9,251 bases of DNA from a virus (Duplodnaviria > Heunggongvirae > Uroviricota > Caudoviricetes). A program made the translations under genes and the position numbers. The notes below the pieces were generated by a model. It saw only the letters and a list, made by a program, of their open reading frames with translations. It was not told the origin of the DNA and did not search any database. Shown piece by piece: positions 1-9,251 of the stretch. The DNA lies in the IMG/VR virus record IMGVR_UViG_2529293246_000005. One strand, 5' to 3'. Numbering within the stretch: the stretch's first letter is position 1; each line of letters starts with the position of its first letter.

Positions 1-258
1 ATGCAAACCGTTATTTTTGGTCGTTCGGGTTGCCCTTACTGTGTGCGTGCAAAAGATCTGGCTGAGAAATTGAGCAATGAACGCGATGATTTTCAGTATC
101 AGTATGTAGATATTCGTGCGGAAGGGATCACTAAAGAAGATCTACAACAAAAGGCAGGTAAACCCGTAGAAACCGTGCCGCAGATTTTTGTCGATCAGCA
201 ACATATCGGCGGCTATACCGATTTTGCTGCATGGGTGAAAGAAAATCTGGACGCCTGA
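1..258 (+). CDS. grxA: Glutaredoxin 1
   Basis: 85-aa ORF with CPYC active-site motif (GCPYCVRAK); translation matches my recollection of E. coli GrxA along its full length; stop at 256-258, followed by a hairpin terminator. Confidence 0.93.
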   Translation: MQTVIFGRSGCPYCVRAKDLAEKLSNERDDFQYQYVDIRAEGITKEDLQQKAGKPVETVPQIFVDQQHIGGYTDFAAWVKENLDA

Positions 259-267
259 TCGTCTGAC

Positions 268-300
268 AAGCCCTCGCGTTGAGGGCTTTACTGATTTTTT
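268..300 (+). terminator. Rho-independent terminator downstream of grxA (overlaps the 3' end of convergent ybjM)
   Basis: Stem AAGCCCTC (268-275), loop GCGTT, stem GAGGGCTT (281-288), then a T-rich tail ending in TTTTTT (295-300). Confidence 0.6.
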
Positions 301-665
301 CTGTGCTGTGGTTTAAACAAACTACTGATAAATAAGAAACACAGTGCCCCCAGCGCACACCAGAACACCGCGCTTAGTAACCATGCCAGCTCTTGCCAGA
401 ATGAGCGCGTCGGTGAAAAAAACAGCCGCATAATGAGCATCGAACAGGGTGCCGCCAGCATTGCGCCAAACAGAGGTTTCAGGACTTCTCTACGCTGTGA
501 AAAGAAGCTGGCCACTGCTCCAGGAAGAATGAAAAATAGCAAGCCGATTTCAGGATGCCCGGCAGCCCGAAAAGCGCCTTTCATGTGCGTCGCCAGAAAA
601 AGGCACACCACAATGAAGAGGACAAAACAGCAGATTGCCCCCGCCCAACGTTGTTTATGTTTCAC
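288..665 (-). CDS. ybjM: Inner membrane protein YbjM (DUF-type small multi-pass membrane protein)
   Basis: 125-aa strongly hydrophobic ORF convergent with grxA, as in the E. coli grxA-ybjM-ybjL neighbourhood; strong SD AGGAGG 5 nt upstream of a GTG start at 663-665 (minus strand). Confidence 0.8.
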   Translation of the reverse strand: MKHKQRWAGAICCFVLFIVVCLFLATHMKGAFRAAGHPEIGLLFFILPGAVASFFSQRREVLKPLFGAMLAAPCSMLIMRLFFSPTRSFWQELAWLLSAVFWCALGALCFLFISSLFKPQHRKNQ

Positions 666-934: not shown

Positions 935-2620
935 GTGAATATAAACGTCGCCGAATTGTTAAATGGGAATTACATTCTGTTATTATTTGTGGTCCTCGCG
1001 CTTGGGCTATGTCTCGGAAAGTTACGACTTGGTTCGATCCAACTGGGTAATTCCATTGGCGTTTTAGTCGTATCGCTGTTATTAGGCCAACAACATTTCA
1101 GCATTAACACCGATGCGCTTAATCTTGGCTTTATGCTGTTTATTTTCTGCGTCGGGGTCGAAGCCGGACCGAACTTTTTTTCCATTTTTTTTCGCGATGG
1201 GAAAAATTACCTAATGTTAGCACTGGTGATGGTTGGCAGTGCGCTGGTGATCGCCTTAGGGTTAGGTAAGCTGTTTGGCTGGGATATTGGCCTGACGGCC
1301 GGTATGTTAGCAGGCTCTATGACGTCGACACCGGTTCTGGTCGGTGCTGGCGATACACTGCGTCATTCCGGCATGGAAAGCAGGCAGCTCTCACTGGCAC
1401 TGGATAATCTGAGCCTCGGGTATGCCTTAACCTATTTAATCGGTCTGGTGAGTTTGATTGTTGGTGCGCGTTACTTGCCGAAATTGCAGCATCAGGACTT
1501 ACAGACCAGCGCCCAGCAAATCGCCCGCGAACGTGGCCTGGACACTGATGCCAACCGTAAGGTTTATTTACCGGTGATCCGCGCCTATCGCGTCGGCCCG
1601 GAGCTGGTGGCCTGGACCGACGGCAAAAATCTGCGTGAACTGGGTATTTATCGACAAACCGGCTGCTACATTGAACGTATTCGACGTAACGGGATTCTGG
1701 CAAATCCAGACGGTGATGCCGTGCTACAAATGGGCGATGAAATAGCGTTGGTAGGCTATCCCGACGCCCATGCCCGACTCGATCCCAGCTTCCGTAACGG
1801 TAAAGAAGTTTTCGATCGTGACCTTCTCGACATGCGTATCGTCACTGAAGAAGTGGTCGTTAAAAACCATAACGCTGTAGGTAAACGTCTCGCACAACTG
1901 AAGTTGACCGATCACGGTTGCTTCCTTAACCGCGTCATTCGTAGCCAGATTGAGATGCCGATAGATGACAACGTCGTGCTTAACAAAGGTGACGTTTTAC
2001 AAGTCAGCGGTGATGCCCGTCGCGTAAAAACCATCGCCGATCGCATCGGCTTTATCTCGATTCACAGCCAGGTCACTGACCTGCTGGCATTTTGCGCCTT
2101 CTTTGTTATTGGGCTGATGATCGGGATGATCACCTTCCAGTTCAGCACATTCAGTTTCGGCATGGGGAACGCTGCCGGGTTGTTATTCGCCGGAATTATG
2201 CTGGGCTTTATGCGTGCTAACCACCCGACCTTCGGTTACATTCCGCAAGGTGCATTAAGCATGGTGAAAGAGTTCGGCTTGATGGTGTTTATGGCAGGCG
2301 TTGGTCTGAGCGCCGGTAGCGGTATTAATAACGGCCTGGGCGCGATTGGCGGTCAGATGTTGATTGCCGGATTAATTGTCAGTCTTGTGCCCGTGGTTAT
2401 CTGTTTCTTGTTCGGTGCTTATGTATTGCGAATGAACCGCGCACTGTTGTTCGGCGCAATGATGGGCGCACGCACCTGCGCGCCGGCAATGGAGATCATC
2501 AGTGATACAGCTCGCAGTAACATCCCTGCGCTGGGCTATGCGGGCACCTACGCAATCGCCAACGTCCTGCTGACGCTGGCAGGGACAATCATCGTCATGG
2601 TATGGCCAGGATTAGGATAA
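935..2620 (+). CDS. ybjL: AAE-family (aspartate:alanine exchanger-like) putative transporter YbjL with two central RCK_C/TrkA-C domains
   Basis: 561-aa ORF; hydrophobic N- and C-terminal halves flank a soluble central region (approx. aa 190-370); translation matches my recollection of E. coli YbjL ([13 protein letters not shown]...). Apparent GTG start at 935, TAA stop at 2618-2620. Confidence 0.92.
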
Positions 2621-2732
2621 AACTGAAGTTGCCCTGAAAATGAAATTTTTTTGCACAACCGCAGAACTTTTCCGCAGGGCATCAGTCTTAATTAGTGCCA
2701 CTGCTTTTCTTTGATGTCCCCATTTTGTGGAG

Positions 2733-2779
2733 CCCATCAACCCCGCCATTTCGGTTCAAGGTTGATGGGTTTTTTGTTG
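2733..2779 (+). terminator. Rho-independent terminator downstream of ybjL
   Basis: Perfect 10-bp stem CCCATCAACC (2733-2742) / GGTTGATGGG (2760-2769) with a 17-nt loop, followed by TTTTTTGTTG (2770-2779). Confidence 0.55.
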
Positions 2780-2855
2780 TCTGAAATTTATGCCGTTTAA
2801 AATCATGACGTTAGAATCACTGTTTTTTAACGATGGCGACAAAATGGCGGCAGCG

Positions 2856-3074
2856 TCAAAGAGAGAGCGCCACCTGTCCTGATTTCATTGGATGCGGCTG
2901 AACCGGATTTGACTCTTTTGGCGTTGCAATCGAACGAACAAAAGTTTCATGGGTTACAAAAGTATGGCTGCAGTTAATATTCTGGCACTGGTTGTAACGC
3001 TCTTTGGTCAATGAAGATACCTGAAAACTGCTGCGAGTATGGGCGGCACTTCCACACAGTGGGCAAATCATCAT
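2856..3074 (-). CDS. ogr: Ogr/Delta-family zinc-finger late-gene transcriptional activator (phage 186 B / P2 Ogr homologue)
   Basis: Translation MMICPLCGSAAHTRSS...KERYNQCQNINCSHTF has the C-x2-C...C-x4-C zinc-finger spacing and resembles P2 Ogr. Position directly after gpD matches P2/186 order. Start chosen at ATG 3072-3074, with a GGGAGA SD upstream on the minus strand; the ORF track's longer 83-aa start is probably an extension. Confidence 0.85.
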   Translation of the reverse strand: MMICPLCGSAAHTRSSFQVSSLTKERYNQCQNINCSHTFVTHETFVRSIATPKESNPVQPHPMKSGQVALSL

Positions 3075-3164
3075 TTTTCGAGTTCTCCCCATTTTTGCTA
3101 AATTCACAATAATGATACCGCATTATTCCATTTTGCAAACTTAAAAGTTCTCCATTGCGAAGAA

Positions 3165-4265
3165 TCATTCCATTTCGAAATCATCAATCCTCACTTCAAG
3201 CTCCAGACTGGTCGTAAAACCGTTATCCGGGCTGACGGTATGCGTCAGAGTCGTAATGGTCCATTCCGCATCATCTATCGGCTGTTTAAAACCACTGACC
3301 TTCACAGGCATTTCCGTGTAGAGATCTGCCCGCCCTTCTGCCAGTTGTAGCGAAAATGACGCAACGCCGCGTTGCAGGCGTTCCCACTGCATTTTCGCCG
3401 CTCGTTCGGCGTTGCTCCGGTTGGCATAAGTGCGATTAAGTACCAGCACGTTTTCATCCGTACCCACCAGGTAATCGCCCTGCTTCGCTTCCGGCTCTTT
3501 CTTCTGCTTCTTAGTTCTGCGCTTACGCTTCACCGTGGTGCTTTCTTTCTTCGCAGGTTCGCGGGTATGCAACCAGCTGGCAATTACGCCCGTGTAGGCT
3601 CCGCGATCTGCCAGGGTAAATCGGTGACTGTCGCCGTCCTTGCGTGTGATAGTGATCACTGGCAGAGGTTTACCAGTGGCGCTTTTGCCCTGCCCCTGCC
3701 GGATGAATAACAGATTGCCATTTTTCACCGACGCGATGGCACCGTACTGTCGCGCCAGCCGCATCAGAAAACTGCCGTCACTCTCATTAGTCTGGTCTAT
3801 ATGCTCCACGGGCTTATCCGACAGGTCTTTACCCAGTGCCATCTTCAGCTTGTGCCGCGCGGCTATTTCCTTCACCACTTCCCCGACGGTGGTCTTATGC
3901 CACGATTTTTCACGGCGGGTATTCAGCGTTTCCCGAAAATCAGCACTTCGCGCCCGGATAGTCAGGCGGTCCGGTGCGCCAGTGTGTTCAATCTCGTCCA
4001 CCGTGAATGCCCCTTTCGGGAAAAGCGGCTGCCCCTTCCAGCCCAGCGCCAGCGTAATAACCGCACCACGGCGCGGCAGCACGATTTTTCCGTCAGCGTC
4101 ATCCAGCTCCAGATCAAGCTGGTCCGCTTCAAAGCCCCGGTTGTCCGTCAGCGTCAGACTCATCAGGCGGTTATCCAGCACAGTGGTGATATCCCTGCCC
4201 TCAATACTGATGCTGAATGCGGGAGTTTTGTTGCCTTTGTTAAGCAGTTCAGAGCTGAAATTCAC
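3165..4265 (-). CDS. D: Phage tail protein D (P2 gpD-like late control/tail protein)
   Basis: 366-aa ORF; translation resembles P2 gpD-family proteins; lies between gpU and ogr as in P2/186; 4-bp ATGA overlap with the upstream gpU. Confidence 0.88.
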   Translation of the reverse strand: MNFSSELLNKGNKTPAFSISIEGRDITTVLDNRLMSLTLTDNRGFEADQLDLELDDADGKIVLPRRGAVITLALGWKGQPLFPKGAFTVDEIEHTGAPDRLTIRARSADFRETLNTRREKSWHKTTVGEVVKEIAARHKLKMALGKDLSDKPVEHIDQTNESDGSFLMRLARQYGAIASVKNGNLLFIRQGQGKSATGKPLPVITITRKDGDSHRFTLADRGAYTGVIASWLHTREPAKKESTTVKRKRRTKKQKKEPEAKQGDYLVGTDENVLVLNRTYANRSNAERAAKMQWERLQRGVASFSLQLAEGRADLYTEMPVKVSGFKQPIDDAEWTITTLTHTVSPDNGFTTSLELEVRIDDFEME

Positions 4266-4747
4266 GACAGCAGCCCTCCCACCGTTTTACTGATATCGCT
4301 TAAGGCAGACGTTGCCGTATCCTGCAGATTATTCAGTTGCGCACTGAGATCACCGAACATATCGGACAGGGATTCATCCACTCGTTTGAGCGACAGGGTG
4401 AACTCAATCCGGCGCGGCATACCGTCGCGGAAAAACTCCGTTTTAGTCTGATTCAGTCCCTCAATCACATACATGCCGTAAATCGTGCCGCTGCCTTCAA
4501 TCAGGGGCCATGCTTTCCCCTGTTCTGCCATCTGCTCCAGTGCCAGCAACGACAGCCTGCCGCCTGTTATCTCCGGCATAAGAACACCGGAAAGCGTCAG
4601 CATGTCGTTGTCCGGTCCCAGAAACTGCGTGGACGGACGACGATTTACCCGGCTGTTAGCCACATGTCGCCAGCTGCGCTGATACTGCAGTTCCTGATAC
4701 GGCACGGTGCGCAGCATAAACACGTACAATCCCAGCACCATCATCAT
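4262..4747 (-). CDS. U: Phage tail protein U (P2 gpU-like)
   Basis: 161-aa ORF starting [10 protein letters not shown]..., resembling P2 gpU; translationally coupled (ATGA overlap) to the upstream tape-measure remnant and to the downstream D. Confidence 0.85.
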   Translation of the reverse strand: MMMVLGLYVFMLRTVPYQELQYQRSWRHVANSRVNRRPSTQFLGPDNDMLTLSGVLMPEITGGRLSLLALEQMAEQGKAWPLIEGSGTIYGMYVIEGLNQTKTEFFRDGMPRRIEFTLSLKRVDESLSDMFGDLSAQLNNLQDTATSALSDISKTVGGLLS

Positions 4748-6144
4748 GCGTCGTATCCCCCCTGATCGCTGTAGTTACTCCTGGCTTTTGCCTTCAGCCT
4801 GCGTTCACGTTCATCAAGCTGGCGGGCCACCTCCCGCGCAATATCCTGCGCACTTTGTCCTGGCTGTGTCTGGATGATGATCTGCGTCGGTGCTTCAATC
4901 CGGTAAATGGGCGGCACAGTAGCTGCACGACTCACCATCGCTTCACCGCCTTTTGCGGGAAGCGCCAAAGGATGCAACGGTGGAAGCTCTGCTGGCGCGG
5001 CAGCAACACCCATCATTCCGGCGACAACGGCAGCCAGTGCAGCTGTATTTCTCCGGCTGGTCACATTTGCCGGGCCGTTAACAATTTCCGGCCCGTTTTC
5101 ACCGACGATGCCAAACTGCCCGCGCGGGATATACCCGCCGCTGTCATACATCCCCGCAAAGCCATATCCCCATGATGGAAAACCACCCGATGGCATCATC
5201 ACTTTACCGTCTGCATTCACCGTCGCAGGTTGCTGACGCGTCACGCTTTCCGGCAGTTTTGCCTTTGCGGCCTCTTTACTGACAATGCCGAGCTTCTCCA
5301 GCAACCAGGAAACGCCGGATTTCAGGGAGTCCAGCGGATGCATGACCATATTCAGCCCTTCCGCCAGTGCCTCCCCGAATCGCCGCCCCATTGCCGCTGC
5401 GCTCTGCAGTTCGGCAGAGGTCGACTTAACGGGCGTCAGCAGATCAGTAAACCAGCCCCACAGCGCCTGCACTTTGTCGCCAATCCACTGGAACACGGGC
5501 TTAAGCGGTTCGAACGCTGCACTGATGGGACCTGCCGCCGCTTTGAATCCTTCCACCACGCCACCGAGAAATGCGGTGATGGGTTGCCAGTATTTCCAGA
5601 CAACCAGCGCCACGCCCGCCAGTGCAGTAACCACAAGACCTATCGGACTGAGCAGAGCACCTAACAGACCAGATATGGCATACAGGGCAACGCGCAGCAT
5701 CGCCAGTGGACCAGATGCCAGTACTCGCAGCACCGTGCCTGCGGCGGCCAGTCCACCGCGCAGTACCGCCAGAGGATTCATAAACATCACAGCAACAGCA
5801 CGTAAACCGGATACCGCACCTGCTGCAACACGTCCGATCTCTGCAGTTGCGCTCATGACGTAATGCGGCAGTTTCTCTTTTGCAACCTCATTAATCGGTA
5901 CACATGGCAGGCAGTGAATCTGTGCCAGAAAACCATCTACCAGCGTTGAATCTTCAGTCAGATCGGTAAGCAGCCAGATTTCTGGTGCGGTTAATAAATG
6001 AGGCTGAGCTGGGTTCAGCTTGTTCCGCAGAATCTGCACATTCATGCCTGCACGTTCTGCCAGTTGCACCAGATTGTGGCGCAGTGCAAATGCACGACAG
6101 GCTTCATCAAAATGTGGATGTTTGGAAACTTGGTAATCAAACAT
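4744..6144 (-). CDS. Chimeric ORF: phage 186 CII-like N-terminus (approx. first 100-115 aa) fused in frame to a tail tape-measure (gpT-like) C-terminal region; deletion scar, likely non-functional as either protein
   Basis: N-terminus [24 protein letters not shown]...[24 protein letters not shown] matches my recollection of the 186 CII (Phage_CII family) N-terminal domain. The remainder is Gly/Ala-rich with hydrophobic segments and ends in a basic tail ([21 protein letters not shown]), sitting immediately upstream of U and D where gpT belongs. Start set at ATG 6142-6144; the ORF track uses an upstream TTG. Confidence 0.72.
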
Positions 6145-6176
6145 GGTCAATGCCTCTGATGTATTTCAGAATCGAA

Positions 6177-6398
6177 CTAATTAAGGTTTAGATTGCATTC
6201 TGAAAGCGCATCAACGGTCATGGCTGCTATGTTGATCATCACTTTTTCGCGTTTTTTATCTTTGCGCAAACGGTGACGGATAAGGCGTCCATCAGCCAAC
6301 ATGTCATTGATGGTATCGATGGACAGTCCTGTCAGCTCGCTATAGCGTTCAATAGTCACATGAGGCGTGGTAAGAGTGATTGAAATGTTAGGTCTCAT
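6177..6398 (-). CDS. apl: Apl/Cox-like small DNA-binding protein (excisionase / lytic-switch repressor-type)
   Basis: 73-aa ORF directly upstream of the cII-like gene and divergent from cI, the 186 apl position. Translation ([35 protein letters not shown]) has an HTH-like segment resembling Apl/Cox-family proteins. GAGGA SD about 10 nt upstream. Confidence 0.65.
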
Positions 6399-6523
6399 GA
6401 TGCAACATTCCTCGTTTAATGATGATTAATCAGGACGAATACGGATCGTTTGTATTTTGTGAACACCATAAACATACGATCGCACTATGAAATCGTCAAG
6501 ATAAAAGTTCACTTGGAGTGACC
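6399..6523. promoter_or_regulatory. Immunity switch region between divergent apl and cI (predicted lytic and lysogenic promoters and operator sites)
   Basis: 125-bp AT-rich divergent intergenic region. It contains a 10-bp inverted repeat with one mismatch, GATCGTTTGT (6444-6453) / ACATACGATC (6472-6481), and a TTAAT-gatg-ATTAA palindrome-like element (6416-6429). Confidence 0.5.
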
Positions 6524-7093
6524 ATGAATTTGGAGAAAGGCGGACGAGGCGCTATAGAGCGCATGGTAGAAGCTTATGGATTCAAAACTCGACAGGCGTT
6601 GTGCGATCATTTAGGAATCTCTAAAAGTACACTCGCTACACGCTACATGCGTGACTCATTCCCAGCAGAATGGGTAATCCAGTGCGCCCTTGAAACGGGC
6701 ACCTCGCTTAATTGGCTCACAACTGGACATGGTTCAAAGCAAACTTCAGGTAATACAAATACGATGGAAGTTGCTAAATATGTATTATCTGATGGTGCCT
6801 TGCGTGAAGACGGTTTTTATATTTTTGATAAGGAATTTCTACCCTCTACGTTTAAAAAACCTTTTGTCATCACAGATAACAATTCTGAATTTATTTGTGA
6901 TAAAGAATTTGATGATATACGTGATGGTAAATGGGTAATAAGTATTGATGGCGAAATAACAATCCGCGACATTACTCGTTTACCCGGTGGAAGAATCTTC
7001 GTTGAAGGTGGAAACAGATCCTTCGAGTGCAAGATAGAAGATGTTGAAATAATTGGAAAAATTATAAGTTTAACAATTAAGTACGTTAGGTAA
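6524..7093 (+). CDS. cI: Phage 186-type CI immunity repressor
   Basis: Translation (IERMVEAYGFKTRQALCDHLGISKSTLATRY...CALETGTSLNWLTTGHG...ITIRDITRLPGG...FECKIEDVEIIGKI) resembles 186 CI, with an N-terminal HTH and a C-terminal oligomerisation domain. Start chosen at ATG 6524 with GGAG 5 nt upstream; the ORF track starts at GTG 6518. Confidence 0.85.
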   Translation: MNLEKGGRGAIERMVEAYGFKTRQALCDHLGISKSTLATRYMRDSFPAEWVIQCALETGTSLNWLTTGHGSKQTSGNTNTMEVAKYVLSDGALREDGFYIFDKEFLPSTFKKPFVITDNNSEFICDKEFDDIRDGKWVISIDGEITIRDITRLPGGRIFVEGGNRSFECKIEDVEIIGKIISLTIKYVR

Positions 7094-7108
7094 TACCGGG
7101 AGGAAACT

Positions 7109-7300
7109 ATGCTTGGTAAGGTATTTTTTGTGGTTTTATCATGTTCTTTGTTATTAAACCCACTAACTACCTATGCTAAAAATTATCCTTGTTCTGGGAA
7201 AAAGGGAGGTGTCTCTCACTGTACCTCCGATGGAAAGTTCGTTTGCAATGATGGAACTATTAGTAAATCAAAAAAAATCTGTACTAAAAACTCGCGATAA
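7109..7300 (+). CDS. Small secreted cysteine-rich protein of unknown function (putative moron)
   Basis: 63-aa ORF with a strong SD (GGGAGG, 5-nt spacer) only 15 nt after the cI stop. The N-terminus [23 protein letters not shown] looks like a type I signal peptide. The predicted mature part is about 40 aa, Lys-rich, with four Cys. Visibly AT-rich relative to flanking phage genes. Confidence 0.6.
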
Positions 7301-7486
7301 TTTTTGCTTTTATATCTGCGCCTAATATAACAATGAGCCGCAGGCTAACCGCAAAAGTCACATACTCACATAGCAAAAAATAGCCAACTTCATTATGGCT
7401 TCAGTGAGATGTATGGTCGCAAGATTTCATACATTGACACTGGTTATACATACAGTAAAAATGCTCTCTATTGGAGGGCATTTTTT

Positions 7487-8518
7487 ATGGCAGTACGAAA
7501 ACTCACCACAGGAAAATGGCTTTGCGAATGTTACCCCGCCGGACGTAGTGGGCGTCGTGTGCGTAAACAATTCGCCACCAAAGGCGAAGCACTGGCTTTT
7601 GAGCGTCACACGATGGAAGAAACCGAAGCAAAGCCCTGGCTGGGCGAATCAGTAGATCGTCGAACCCTGAAAGACGTGGTTGAGCTATGGTTCAAACTAC
7701 ATGGTAAATCTCTGACTGCTGGGCAGCATGTCTATGACAAATTGCTGCTGATGGTTGACGCTCTGGGCAATCCCCTTGCAACCGATCTCACATCTAAAAT
7801 GTTTGCCCATTATCGAGATAAACGACTGACAGGTGAGATCTACTTCAGCGAGAAATGGAAGAAAGGGGCCAGCCCGGTCACCATTAACCTGGAGCAAAGC
7901 TATCTAAGTAGTGTTTTTAGCGAACTATCCCGCCTGGGCGAATGGTCGTATCCAAACCCACTGGAGAACATGCGAAAATTCACCATCGCAGAAAAAGAGA
8001 TGGCATGGCTTACCCATGAGCAGATTGTTGAACTGCTGGATGATTGCAAACGTCAGGACCCAATTCTGGCACTGGTAGTCAAGATATGCTTAAGCACAGG
8101 CGCACGCTGGCGAGAAGCAATAAACCTTACCCGATCACAGGTGACCAAATACCGAATTACCTTTGTAAGAACGAAGGGGAAGAAAAACAGAAGCATCCCT
8201 ATCAGTAAAGAGCTTTATGAAGAGATCATGGCGCTTGATGGGTTCAATTTCTTCACAGACTGCTATTTTCAATTTTTATCCGTGATGGAAAAAACGTCTA
8301 TCGTGCTCCCTCGCGGTCAACTTACACACGTTCTGCGTCATACGTTTGCGGCGCATTTCATGATGTCGGGTGGAAACATCCTTGCTTTGCAAAAAATCCT
8401 CGGACATCACGACATTAAAATGACTATGCGTTATGCTCATCTATCACCTGATCACTTAGAGACAGCTCTTCGTTTCAATCCACTAGCAACTTTGGATGTT
8501 ACTAAATCAGATTCTTAA
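7487..8518 (+). CDS. int: Tyrosine site-specific integrase (P2/186 Int family)
   Basis: Translation from MAVRKLTTGKWLCECYPAGRSGRRVRKQF resembles P2 Int. Catalytic signature present: STGARWREA (Arg), HVLRHTFA (H-x-x-R), MRYAHL (Tyr nucleophile). Start at ATG 7487 with a GGAGGG SD; the ORF track's start at 7409 is an upstream extension. Confidence 0.9.
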   Translation: MAVRKLTTGKWLCECYPAGRSGRRVRKQFATKGEALAFERHTMEETEAKPWLGESVDRRTLKDVVELWFKLHGKSLTAGQHVYDKLLLMVDALGNPLATDLTSKMFAHYRDKRLTGEIYFSEKWKKGASPVTINLEQSYLSSVFSELSRLGEWSYPNPLENMRKFTIAEKEMAWLTHEQIVELLDDCKRQDPILALVVKICLSTGARWREAINLTRSQVTKYRITFVRTKGKKNRSIPISKELYEEIMALDGFNFFTDCYFQFLSVMEKTSIVLPRGQLTHVLRHTFAAHFMMSGGNILALQKILGHHDIKMTMRYAHLSPDHLETALRFNPLATLDVTKSDS

Positions 8519-8528
8519 AGGTTCAAGC

Positions 8529-9251
8529 ATGGTTAAGTTTTTGTTTCAATTCCCAATATTCGACTTCTCCTTAACATTTGATATTATCGAGACGTTAATC
8601 ACTCATAGCGAATCATCAATCGCTAAGGGCATAGCAGAATATAAAGACAAAGGACCTGAAGAATATATAATTGAAATATCTCCGGAAGATGGTGTATATC
8701 AGTCAATTGATCATTACATGGGACTCACCAGCTCATCGCTAGATCTCGATGAAATGTTTTTAGAATACTACCCAAGTATTATCCGCAGGTCAGTATTCTT
8801 AACTATATTCGGAATTTTTGAGCACGAAATAGAAAAATTCTGTAACAACTTTGCTAATAGACATCATTCTCCTATAAATGTTTCAGATCTCAAAGGAAGT
8901 GGATTTGAGAGGAGCCATCTATTTATCAAAAAAATGATAGGGATGAAGTCAACATCCCACTATTCGAATATCAAAAAAATAACAAAATTAAGAAACAGTT
9001 GTGCGCATAATGATGCAAAATACTTAGAAAACGATGGGCAAAATATTAAAAGCATTATTGAACTTATAGAAAAATATCCTGATTTTTTTAAAAAAGATGG
9101 AAAACAGGTCCTATTTATGGGGGGCTCGTTAAGCATGATCTTGAACTCATTCAAAGAGTATCTTTCTGATGTTGAAAGAGCCTTAGATGAATTCGAAAAA
9201 CAAAGCACTAGTGGCGACAAAGTGGCGGCAGCGGTTGGCATTACCCCGTAA
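8529..9251 (+). CDS. Hypothetical protein with an HEPN-like R-x4-H motif (candidate RNase toxin / abortive-infection-type cargo); function unverified
   Basis: 240-aa AT-rich ORF beginning 10 nt after the int stop on the same strand; AAGG SD-like element upstream of ATG 8529. Motif K-L-R-N-S-C-A-H at nt 8985-9008 (Arg codon 8991-8993, His codon 9006-9008). Sequence looks predominantly helical. I do not recognise it as any characterised protein. Confidence 0.55.
   Translation: MVKFLFQFPIFDFSLTFDIIETLITHSESSIAKGIAEYKDKGPEEYIIEISPEDGVYQSIDHYMGLTSSSLDLDEMFLEYYPSIIRRSVFLTIFGIFEHEIEKFCNNFANRHHSPINVSDLKGSGFERSHLFIKKMIGMKSTSHYSNIKKITKLRNSCAHNDAKYLENDGQNIKSIIELIEKYPDFFKKDGKQVLFMGGSLSMILNSFKEYLSDVERALDEFEKQSTSGDKVAAAVGITP

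Follow-up and report, generated by a model that had tools for sequence, protein, structure and literature searches.

A defective 186-type P2-family prophage at the rybB site of Escherichia coli and a recurrent deletion breakpoint in cII

We investigated a 9,251-nt stretch of Escherichia coli DNA recorded in IMG/VR as IMGVR_UViG_2529293246_000005 (hereafter the window, numbered from its first letter), in which the remnant of a temperate phage of the P2 family, Peduoviridae, adjoins the small RNA (sRNA) gene rybB. Sequence beyond the window was taken from a public 157-kb scaffold, L285, which is 100% identical to all 9,251 bases. The left third of the window is E. coli core DNA with 99.5% identity to K-12, and K-12 homology ends at 2791. 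This part carries grxA (1-258, plus strand), ybjM (288-665, minus strand), ybjL (935-2620, plus strand) and rybB (2700-2778, plus strand); the last of these matches the Rfam model RF00110 over positions 1-79 of 79 with 105.3 bits, is intact and has the same sequence as the K-12 copy. Every open reading frame (ORF) from 2856 onward is of phage type by Pfam, PHROG and NCBIfam profiles. The element retains the two ends of a 186-type prophage, which are joined by an in-frame fusion of the regulatory gene cII to the tape-measure gene T.

The integration target is rybB. Comparison of the window and L285 with K-12, whose locus is unoccupied and of the kind that the initial annotation of this DNA had proposed to align, showed two copies of a 14-bp core, ATGGGTTTTTTGTT. 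One copy, in attR, the junction on the ogr side (2765-2778, plus strand), constitutes the final 14 nt of rybB, which comprise the U-tract and the terminator stem on its 3' side. The core recurs on L285 at 9326-9339 in window numbering, 74 nt past the window end, and is followed there by K-12-type sequence and then by rcdA-ybjJ-ybjI-mdfA in the normal order. The left core runs into phage-type gtctgaaattt and the right core into host-type atctaaaactt, and the crossover must therefore have fallen within these 14 bp. With its own copy of the core, the phage rebuilds the exact rybB terminator and leaves rybB intact. The element extends ~88 nt beyond the window end, for a total remnant of 6,561 bp, and, like the rybB-integrating prophages, it has a duplicated core overlapping the rybB 3' end and lies between rybB and rcdA. 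The K-12 annotation at this locus reads ybjL-rybB-rcdA, in agreement with the statement in the initial annotation that K-12 has no prophage between ybjL and rcdA. The element start given there, 2780, is also exact, with the core ending at 2778, but the insertion had been placed at the 3' end of ybjL, whereas the actual target, the last 14 nt of rybB, lies 145 nt downstream of the ybjL stop codon. Two repeats, GATGGCGACA and AATGGCGGCA, read directly in the P' arm (2826-2850), are mirrored by a similar pair, GTGGCGACA and GTGGCGGCA, at 9212-9234, and these repeats are candidate Int arm-type sites; the arm-type consensus in the record of coliphage 186 (NC_001317) is YAYCGCCAYTY.

Starting from the rybB side, the first phage gene is ogr (2856-3074, minus strand), which encodes a 72-aa zinc-finger late-gene activator homologous to B of 186 (PF04606, E 6.7e-22; NF007241) and shows 100% identity to ogr of the near-complete strain 639 prophage. 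On the same strand, it is followed by gene D (3165-4265; tail/baseplate hub, 366 aa, PF05954) and gene U (4262-4747; tail protein, 161 aa, PF06995, E 7.6e-44), which show, respectively, 99.7% and 100% identity to strain 639; all three genes are intact. Next comes the in-frame fusion ORF of 466 aa (4744-6144, minus strand), which consists of the last ~354-356 codons of T, encoding the C-terminal part of the tape-measure protein (T', 4744-5813; phrog_5690/phrog_28 on aa 97-466) and collinear with intact T genes up to 5813, and codons 1 to ~112 of the gene for the 186-type activator CII (cII', 5814-6144; PF06892, match within aa 1-113). Beyond the fusion lie two intact genes, apl (6177-6398, minus strand; Cox-like excisionase and repressor, 73 aa, phrog_575, E 6e-31), 100% identical to intact-prophage copies, and cI (6524-7093, plus strand; immunity repressor, 189 aa, PF07022 and PF16452), 98.9% identical to the gene in the prophage of DSM 103246; the divergent arrangement of cI and apl-cII is the 186-type switch. 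A 63-aa ORF of the YdcA family (7109-7300, plus strand; NF007463, 116 bits; phrog_6000) separates cI from the intact tyrosine integrase gene int (7487-8518, plus strand; 343 aa, PF24624 and PF00589), which is 100% identical to the integrase of prophages ending at rcdA, and a 240-aa HEPN-like cargo gene (8529-9251, plus strand) occupies the slot between int and att. The gene content proposed in the initial annotation, ogr-D-U-T and apl-cI-int, is present as stated, but rybB, the in-frame cII'-T' fusion and the YdcA-family and HEPN-like ORFs had been missed.

Comparison with the strain 639 prophage locates the missing part of the genome. From the rybB side, the window follows this prophage collinearly as far as reference 6075, within T, and resumes at 30078-30084, within cII; the ~24 kb in between (reference 6076-30083), containing fil, the replication genes, cos, the head and lysis genes and most tail genes, are absent. 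At the joint (5810-5813; ...AAACCGGATA/CCGCACC..., where the slash, here and below, marks the joint), there are 4 nt of microhomology, GATA, and the deletion connects cII codons 1-112 in frame to T'. Homologous recombination is rejected as the source of this junction, since GATA is all that the parental sequences have in common there. The retained genes equal their intact-prophage counterparts in length, with 95-100% identity, so that no lesion other than the one deletion is visible. Thus, the earlier view that two prophage ends were kept and the middle lost is borne out by the alignment, whereas the description of the element as decayed applies to the one ~24-kb deletion but not to the retained genes. 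The 466-aa fusion product is encoded, as an exact match, on 5 public contigs.

The element shows the defining arrangement of Peduoviridae, with T-U-D followed by an Ogr/Delta activator at one prophage end, in an order collinear with 186, and a tyrosine integrase beside att together with a 186-type switch at the other end; the gene order is also collinear with a 31-kb prophage at the rybB site. Complete replication, head, lysis and tail modules are absent along with reference 6076-30083, and the element is therefore classed as a defective remnant, not a phage. Identity to 186 amounts to 77% for CII, 55% for Int, 55% for D, 49% for U, 54% for Ogr/B and 32% for CI, whereas P2 itself matches only in Ogr and Int, which makes the element a 186-type member of the P2 family. 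The 186/P2-like prophage remnant proposed initially is in agreement with the Pfam and PHROG gene identities. Because CI is only 32% identical to that of 186, immunity differs from 186. For the late genes, the closest sequenced phages are Klebsiella phages 4LV2017 (Elveevirus) and KP12, at 94-97% DNA identity.

Several known elements resemble the one in the window. Coliphage 186 (Eganvirus ev186, NC_001317) has the same layout, with int-cI leftward, apl-cII rightward and B/ogr-D-U(F)-T(G) at the other end, and it likewise enters the 3' end of a small RNA gene and restores the gene end, but its target is the tRNA gene ileY rather than rybB. The defective P2-like prophage of E. coli B and BL21 shares with the window element the rybB-rcdA site, the phage group and a deletion endpoint at cII codon 112, but has lost only ~3.6 kb, retains the late genes and a retron with an St85-family reverse transcriptase (RT), and carries different int-side cargo. 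The P2 remnant ogrK-yegZ of K-12, which lies beside the sRNA gene cyaR, also adjoins an sRNA 3' end, and keeps ogr and part of D. This K-12 remnant is devoid of the int-cI end, whereas the remnant in the window preserves both ends and both att cores.

Occupancy of the site is polymorphic. Of 5,426 complete E. coli genomes, 4,294 (79%) match a 701-bp K-12 probe across the empty site without interruption, and 1,105 (about one fifth) carry the rybB-ogr junction of the window. Strain 639 and others have full-length or near-full-length prophages at this site, and rcdA adjoins the same int-HEPN end in 4 of 5 genomes inspected. The exact remnant at rybB is absent from all complete E. coli genomes of the collection. 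In a published study, hotspot #29 harboured exclusively rybB-integrated Felsduovirus prophages, each with at most 2 defence systems (Hochhauser, Millman and Sorek 2023, PMC10121019), and an island named Kpn38RybB was described in Klebsiella pneumoniae (2014, PMC4048246). The window element shares with the hotspot #29 prophages and Kpn38RybB the rybB 3'-end site between ybjL and rcdA, the phage family and variable int-adjacent cargo, and differs from them in being defective, without ~24 kb, and in having a single HEPN-like gene as its cargo. Thus, the element type and the site are already known in kind, and the present deletion derivative is new and rare. The initial suggestion of a strain-specific insertion holds insofar as the insertion is polymorphic relative to K-12, but understates the case for what is a published, frequently occupied hotspot.

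An unexpected feature is the cII side of the deletion, which recurs in other remnants and for which we found no published description. The deletion end TA/CCGCACC (TA/CCGCACCTGC, codon 112; window 5810-5823) is common to at least 13 distinct junctions, carried by the window and by loci L001, L009, L012, L014, L016, L017, L024, L033, L073, L084, L127, L132, L136, L226 and L290. The cII end is joined to positions in T, U, D, the portal gene, gene A and elsewhere, in diverged phages integrated at rybB and ssrA. When each junction is compared with its best-matching parents, there are 13 distinct left flanks, the cII endpoint remains within 2-3 nt, and the microhomology, 2-7 nt long, always overlaps the TA of the GTA codon 112 and may extend to either side. 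The notion that TA was required in the partner site was dropped after better parent sequences were found. This breakpoint was present in 6 of 9 inspected E. coli remnants, among which the left endpoints, in reference coordinates, are T 5937 in LR-27 (L001) and in BE2-5, the latter with an inverted 374-bp filler, U 4831 in ETEC1706, D 4183 in A134_1EC and D 3542 in E3. A scan of metagenomes added 4 further contigs, with gene A, the portal gene and two more D positions as partners, and a scan of IMG/VR in which TA was not forced returned 116 intact contexts and 4 junctions, all 4 of them at TA/CCGCACC.

The same cII endpoint occurs in quite different surroundings. A remnant beside ssrA in strain HH107 (L009, NZ_CP116405.1) has exactly the T/cII junction of the window. 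It matches the window in the junction 21-mer and over 800 bp of T', its Rha-type regulator, cI and integrase are different, and its cII' diverges from 11 nt past the joint onward; the junction 21-mer and the 800 bp of T' are also present in the IMG/VR contig L132. In BL21 TaKaRa (L290, NZ_CP010816.1 839655-848859), the partner is gene A, the junction lies at position 4506 of the locus and yields an in-frame cII'::A' fusion, the 3.6 kb lost extend from cII codon 113 to the middle of A, and the St85-family retron RT and effector are present; a junction flank identical to that of BL21 was found in the metagenome contig L024. The cII' alleles at the shared breakpoint are only 80-100% identical to one another, which argues for independent deletion events. 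In 6 of 9 co-directional fusions at this breakpoint, the reading frame is maintained, compared to an expectation of one third, which is weak evidence given that the events are not all independent.

Two other sites are used repeatedly as well. A second recurrent cII endpoint, ATCTA/CCAGCG (reference L011rc 30209), was found in P276M (L289) and NT1N28 (L291), with reference 16409 and D 3829 as the partners and TA microhomology at both junctions. The T site ACCAGATA/TGG (reference L011rc 5931-5937, corresponding to window 5669-5675) is a recurrent left endpoint (L001, L012, L289) with 3 partners, namely, cII, the inverted filler from the gpP region and reference 13792, and has the 7-mer CCAGATA in common with the cII site. 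This 7-mer occurs in 8 copies on the relevant strand of the reference prophage, only 2 of which were seen as endpoints, so that microhomology alone is insufficient to account for endpoint choice.

We examined a range of possible causes for the cII breakpoint, none of which received support. Neither an inverted copy of an insertion sequence (IS) or transposon terminus nor, in ~330 inspected cII copies, any IS at the site was detected, and the IS1-associated deletions of related remnants are located elsewhere, away from the cII site. The replication origins of P2 and 186 (CTCG^GAGTCCTGTCAATAAC), at which the HUH-family A protein nicks, and the origin of the reference prophage are unlike the cII site; the P2/186 nick sequence and its counterpart in this phage group are located within gene A, which holds no copy of the cII-site motif. 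Folding of single-stranded DNA gave z scores of ~0 on both strands, no better than shuffled sequences, providing no indication of a hairpin or cruciform, and the cII site does not conform to the preference for cutting before G that is typical of quinolone-type gyrase cleavage (PMC6379681). Inspection by eye only revealed no convincing Chi, dif/Xer, Ter, hix/gix, relaxase nic, or type IIS or type III restriction site. A contig scan of the genome collection produced one relevant match, an intact cII, and in the literature we found nothing specific on the cII deletion pattern or on the defect of the B-strain prophage.

A near-fixed endpoint with many partners, joined through 2-7 nt of microhomology overlapping one TA, appears easier to reconcile with nicking, breakage or replication arrest at one defined place than with random decay. 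Michel and Ehrlich reportedly described, in 1986, illegitimate recombination at rolling-circle nick sites, those of the M13 and pC194 origins, and the resemblance is that, there too, a near-fixed end is combined with numerous partners, which have a few nucleotides in common with the sequence around it. We know of no nickase for the cII site. It is conceivable, although we put this forward only tentatively, that cII codon 112 (sense strand GCAGGTGCGGTA/TCTGG) is a sequence-specific break, nick or replication-arrest point of 186-type Peduoviridae that repeatedly generates deletions from cII into the replication and late genes. Prophages at rybB, at ssrA and perhaps at further sites, the classic defective prophage of E. 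coli B among them, would thereby become remnants that confer immunity but no longer lyse. As part of this same tentative proposal, the similar behavior of the 30209 site and of the T site CCAGATA/TGG would point to an unrecognised TA-centred breakage-and-joining activity of phage or host.

The explanation that best accounts for the locus, to which we assign a probability of roughly 90%, is that a 186-type Peduoviridae prophage integrated at rybB and subsequently underwent a ~24-kb deletion that fused cII' to T', with the cII side of the deletion at a recurrent breakpoint. Under this scenario, a 186-type phage of the P2 family (the rybB group is called Felsduovirus) would have entered by Int-mediated recombination of attP with the 14-bp rybB core, and one later deletion removed the segment from cII codon 113 through fil and the replication, cos, head and lysis regions to the last third of T. 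The deletion left an immobile 6,561-bp element that holds cI, apl, int, ogr, D and U, all intact, together with the two att cores and the HEPN-like cargo gene. Such a remnant would be unable to replicate, package or lyse, and, because tum is gone, would no longer be SOS-inducible; it probably provides CI immunity against homoimmune phages, may confer HEPN-mediated defence, and could in principle be excised if Apl and Int were expressed.

Several considerations weigh against this explanation or temper its last element, the recurrence of the breakpoint. The attL core lies outside the window and is assigned from the identical public scaffold. The collection scans used the retained cII side as their anchor and so detect junctions only there. 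With the anchor placed on the deleted side instead, all 120 of 120 continuations were intact; this is only weak evidence that the pattern is one-sided, an appearance that selection for retention of cI could also produce. In an unbiased query of 400 bp with the site at its centre, cII was intact in 1,230 of 1,307 genomes and truncated in ~77; many of these ~77 are probably derivatives of B strains and hence of one event, and the truncated cases sampled include both hotspot endpoints (B strains) and non-hotspot endpoints. There are also other cII endpoints (reference 29940, 30021, 30209 and 30419), and strains with cII endpoints of this other kind include D97-1, ZYB62, P276M and ETEC6333; some of the junctions may share ancestry, having spread through recombination between prophages.

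This last point leads to an alternative that concerns the breakpoint specifically, namely, that the shared cII endpoint stems from one or a few old deletions moved by homologous recombination, with microhomology and selection for keeping cI contributing to the pattern. In its favour, more than one remnant shares each of the left endpoints T6075, T5937 and D3542, the cII site sits within the multicopy 7-mer CCAGATA, the anchoring of the scans favours detection on the retained side, and the surplus of in-frame fusions hints at selection. Yet there are 13 left flanks, several of which have only TA or AT as microhomology while the endpoint remains within 2-3 nt; the diverged cII' alleles belong to phages with different integrases and attachment sites; recombination cannot place the cII endpoint on new, non-homologous partners; and just two of the eight 7-mer copies serve as endpoints. 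We regard this alternative as possible but doubtful. It is very unlikely that the remnant is a P4-like satellite or an autonomously spreading mini-element, an idea that would explain the shared T/cII junction at rybB and ssrA. The identical junction 21-mer and 800 bp of T' in HH107, with its different cI and int, the occurrence of the junction in L132, and the retention of int, apl and both att cores speak for it. However, no P4-like satellite hallmarks (primase/replicase, cos or helper-manipulating genes, including capsid-size genes) were found in the window, where all ORFs are helper-type genes or cargo, and the cos region falls within the deleted segment; the genes are collinear with, and 95-100% identical to, those of full-length prophage ends at the same site; and, from 11 nt beyond the junction onward, the cII' of HH107 departs from that of the window, which points to two events or to later recombination and not to the spread of one element.

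Another alternative posits that the window is a rearrangement junction between the left half of a rybB prophage and a cII'-int-HEPN segment from another site, such as fhuE/ptsG. The right half is indeed 99.6% identical to the prophage end at the truncated fhuE by ptsG in DSM 103246, and the left half is 99.8% identical to other prophages, but L285 runs on from the window into the core and rcdA-ybjJ-ybjI-mdfA, rcdA adjoins the same int-HEPN end in four other genomes, and the T/cII junction is non-homologous, with merely the 4-nt microhomology. This origin is refuted for the window sequence and is, overall, extremely improbable; an inversion or chimera with the fhuE/ptsG prophage, considered on account of DSM 103246, is likewise ruled out by L285. 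The initial annotation had also named a finding that would speak against insertion, the presence of this gene block as ancestral content in essentially all related genomes. The survey of occupancy found nothing of the kind: only the presence of the block in about one fifth of the genomes could be cited in favour of ancestral core content, whereas ybjL-rybB-rcdA is contiguous in 79% of the complete genomes, K-12 included, a duplicated 14-bp core flanks the block, and its contents are phage genes. We therefore consider the ancestral interpretation refuted and practically out of the question.

The cargo at the int end has its own history. The cargo DNA (~8491-9209) is inserted at about codon 334 of int, inside the int 3' end, and int has gained a new 9-residue end through this insertion (window 8491-9251 compared with L002 17760-17870). 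The ancestral int 3' end (SGDKVAAAVGITP*; 9210-9251, plus strand), which bears the P-arm repeats, now forms the end of the cargo ORF and is 100% identical to the terminal 42 nt of int in strain G3/10, which lacks cargo and whose integrase has 350 aa. The cargo protein has an Rx4-6H motif in a four-helix HEPN fold, but it does not reach the thresholds of curated HEPN profiles, with the best Pfam match, HEPN_RiboL-PSP, at 17.2 bits compared to a cut-off of 28.4, and no match in NCBIfam; PADLOC yielded only a weak match to this gene (E 0.0047), with no model above threshold. In other prophages, the same slot holds an 89-aa ORF, a Panacea-domain pair or a 110-aa ORF, and related prophages carry Panacea-domain, retron or GmrSD genes. 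The YdcA-family ORF between cI and int, which has a hydrophobic N-terminus, is variable in position among related phages, and Klebsiella phage KP12 has a 1.7-kb ATPase gene in its place, which suggests that the cI-int position is a second cargo slot.

A few observations were made in related strains. DSM 103246 (NZ_CP019944.1; L004 12780-12900) has a 100% identical int-HEPN end, but after ...cataaatgg its sequence continues into a 5'-truncated fhuE beside ptsG instead of the rybB core and rcdA, a junction that represents either integration at a secondary site or a rearrangement. Two cases of core-gene damage are unrelated to the prophage: grxA of P276M is interrupted by IS1A (L289 201-1235), and nfsA of LR-27 contains an internal stop (L001 4848-5570).

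As a prophage remnant at rybB, the element adds little, given that the site, the phage group and the defence cargo of that group have already been described. It does provide a clean example of a phage that uses and exactly restores the terminator of a sigma-E-dependent regulatory sRNA, and it shows how cargo genes slot into the int 3' end with the arm sites undisturbed. The cII breakpoint is noteworthy because one nucleotide position is reused across diverged phages, two attachment sites and a laboratory B strain. If a specific mechanism lies behind this reuse, it would offer an experimentally tractable way of disarming temperate phages without loss of immunity and cargo, and would explain part of the pattern of 'domestication' of P2-like remnants.

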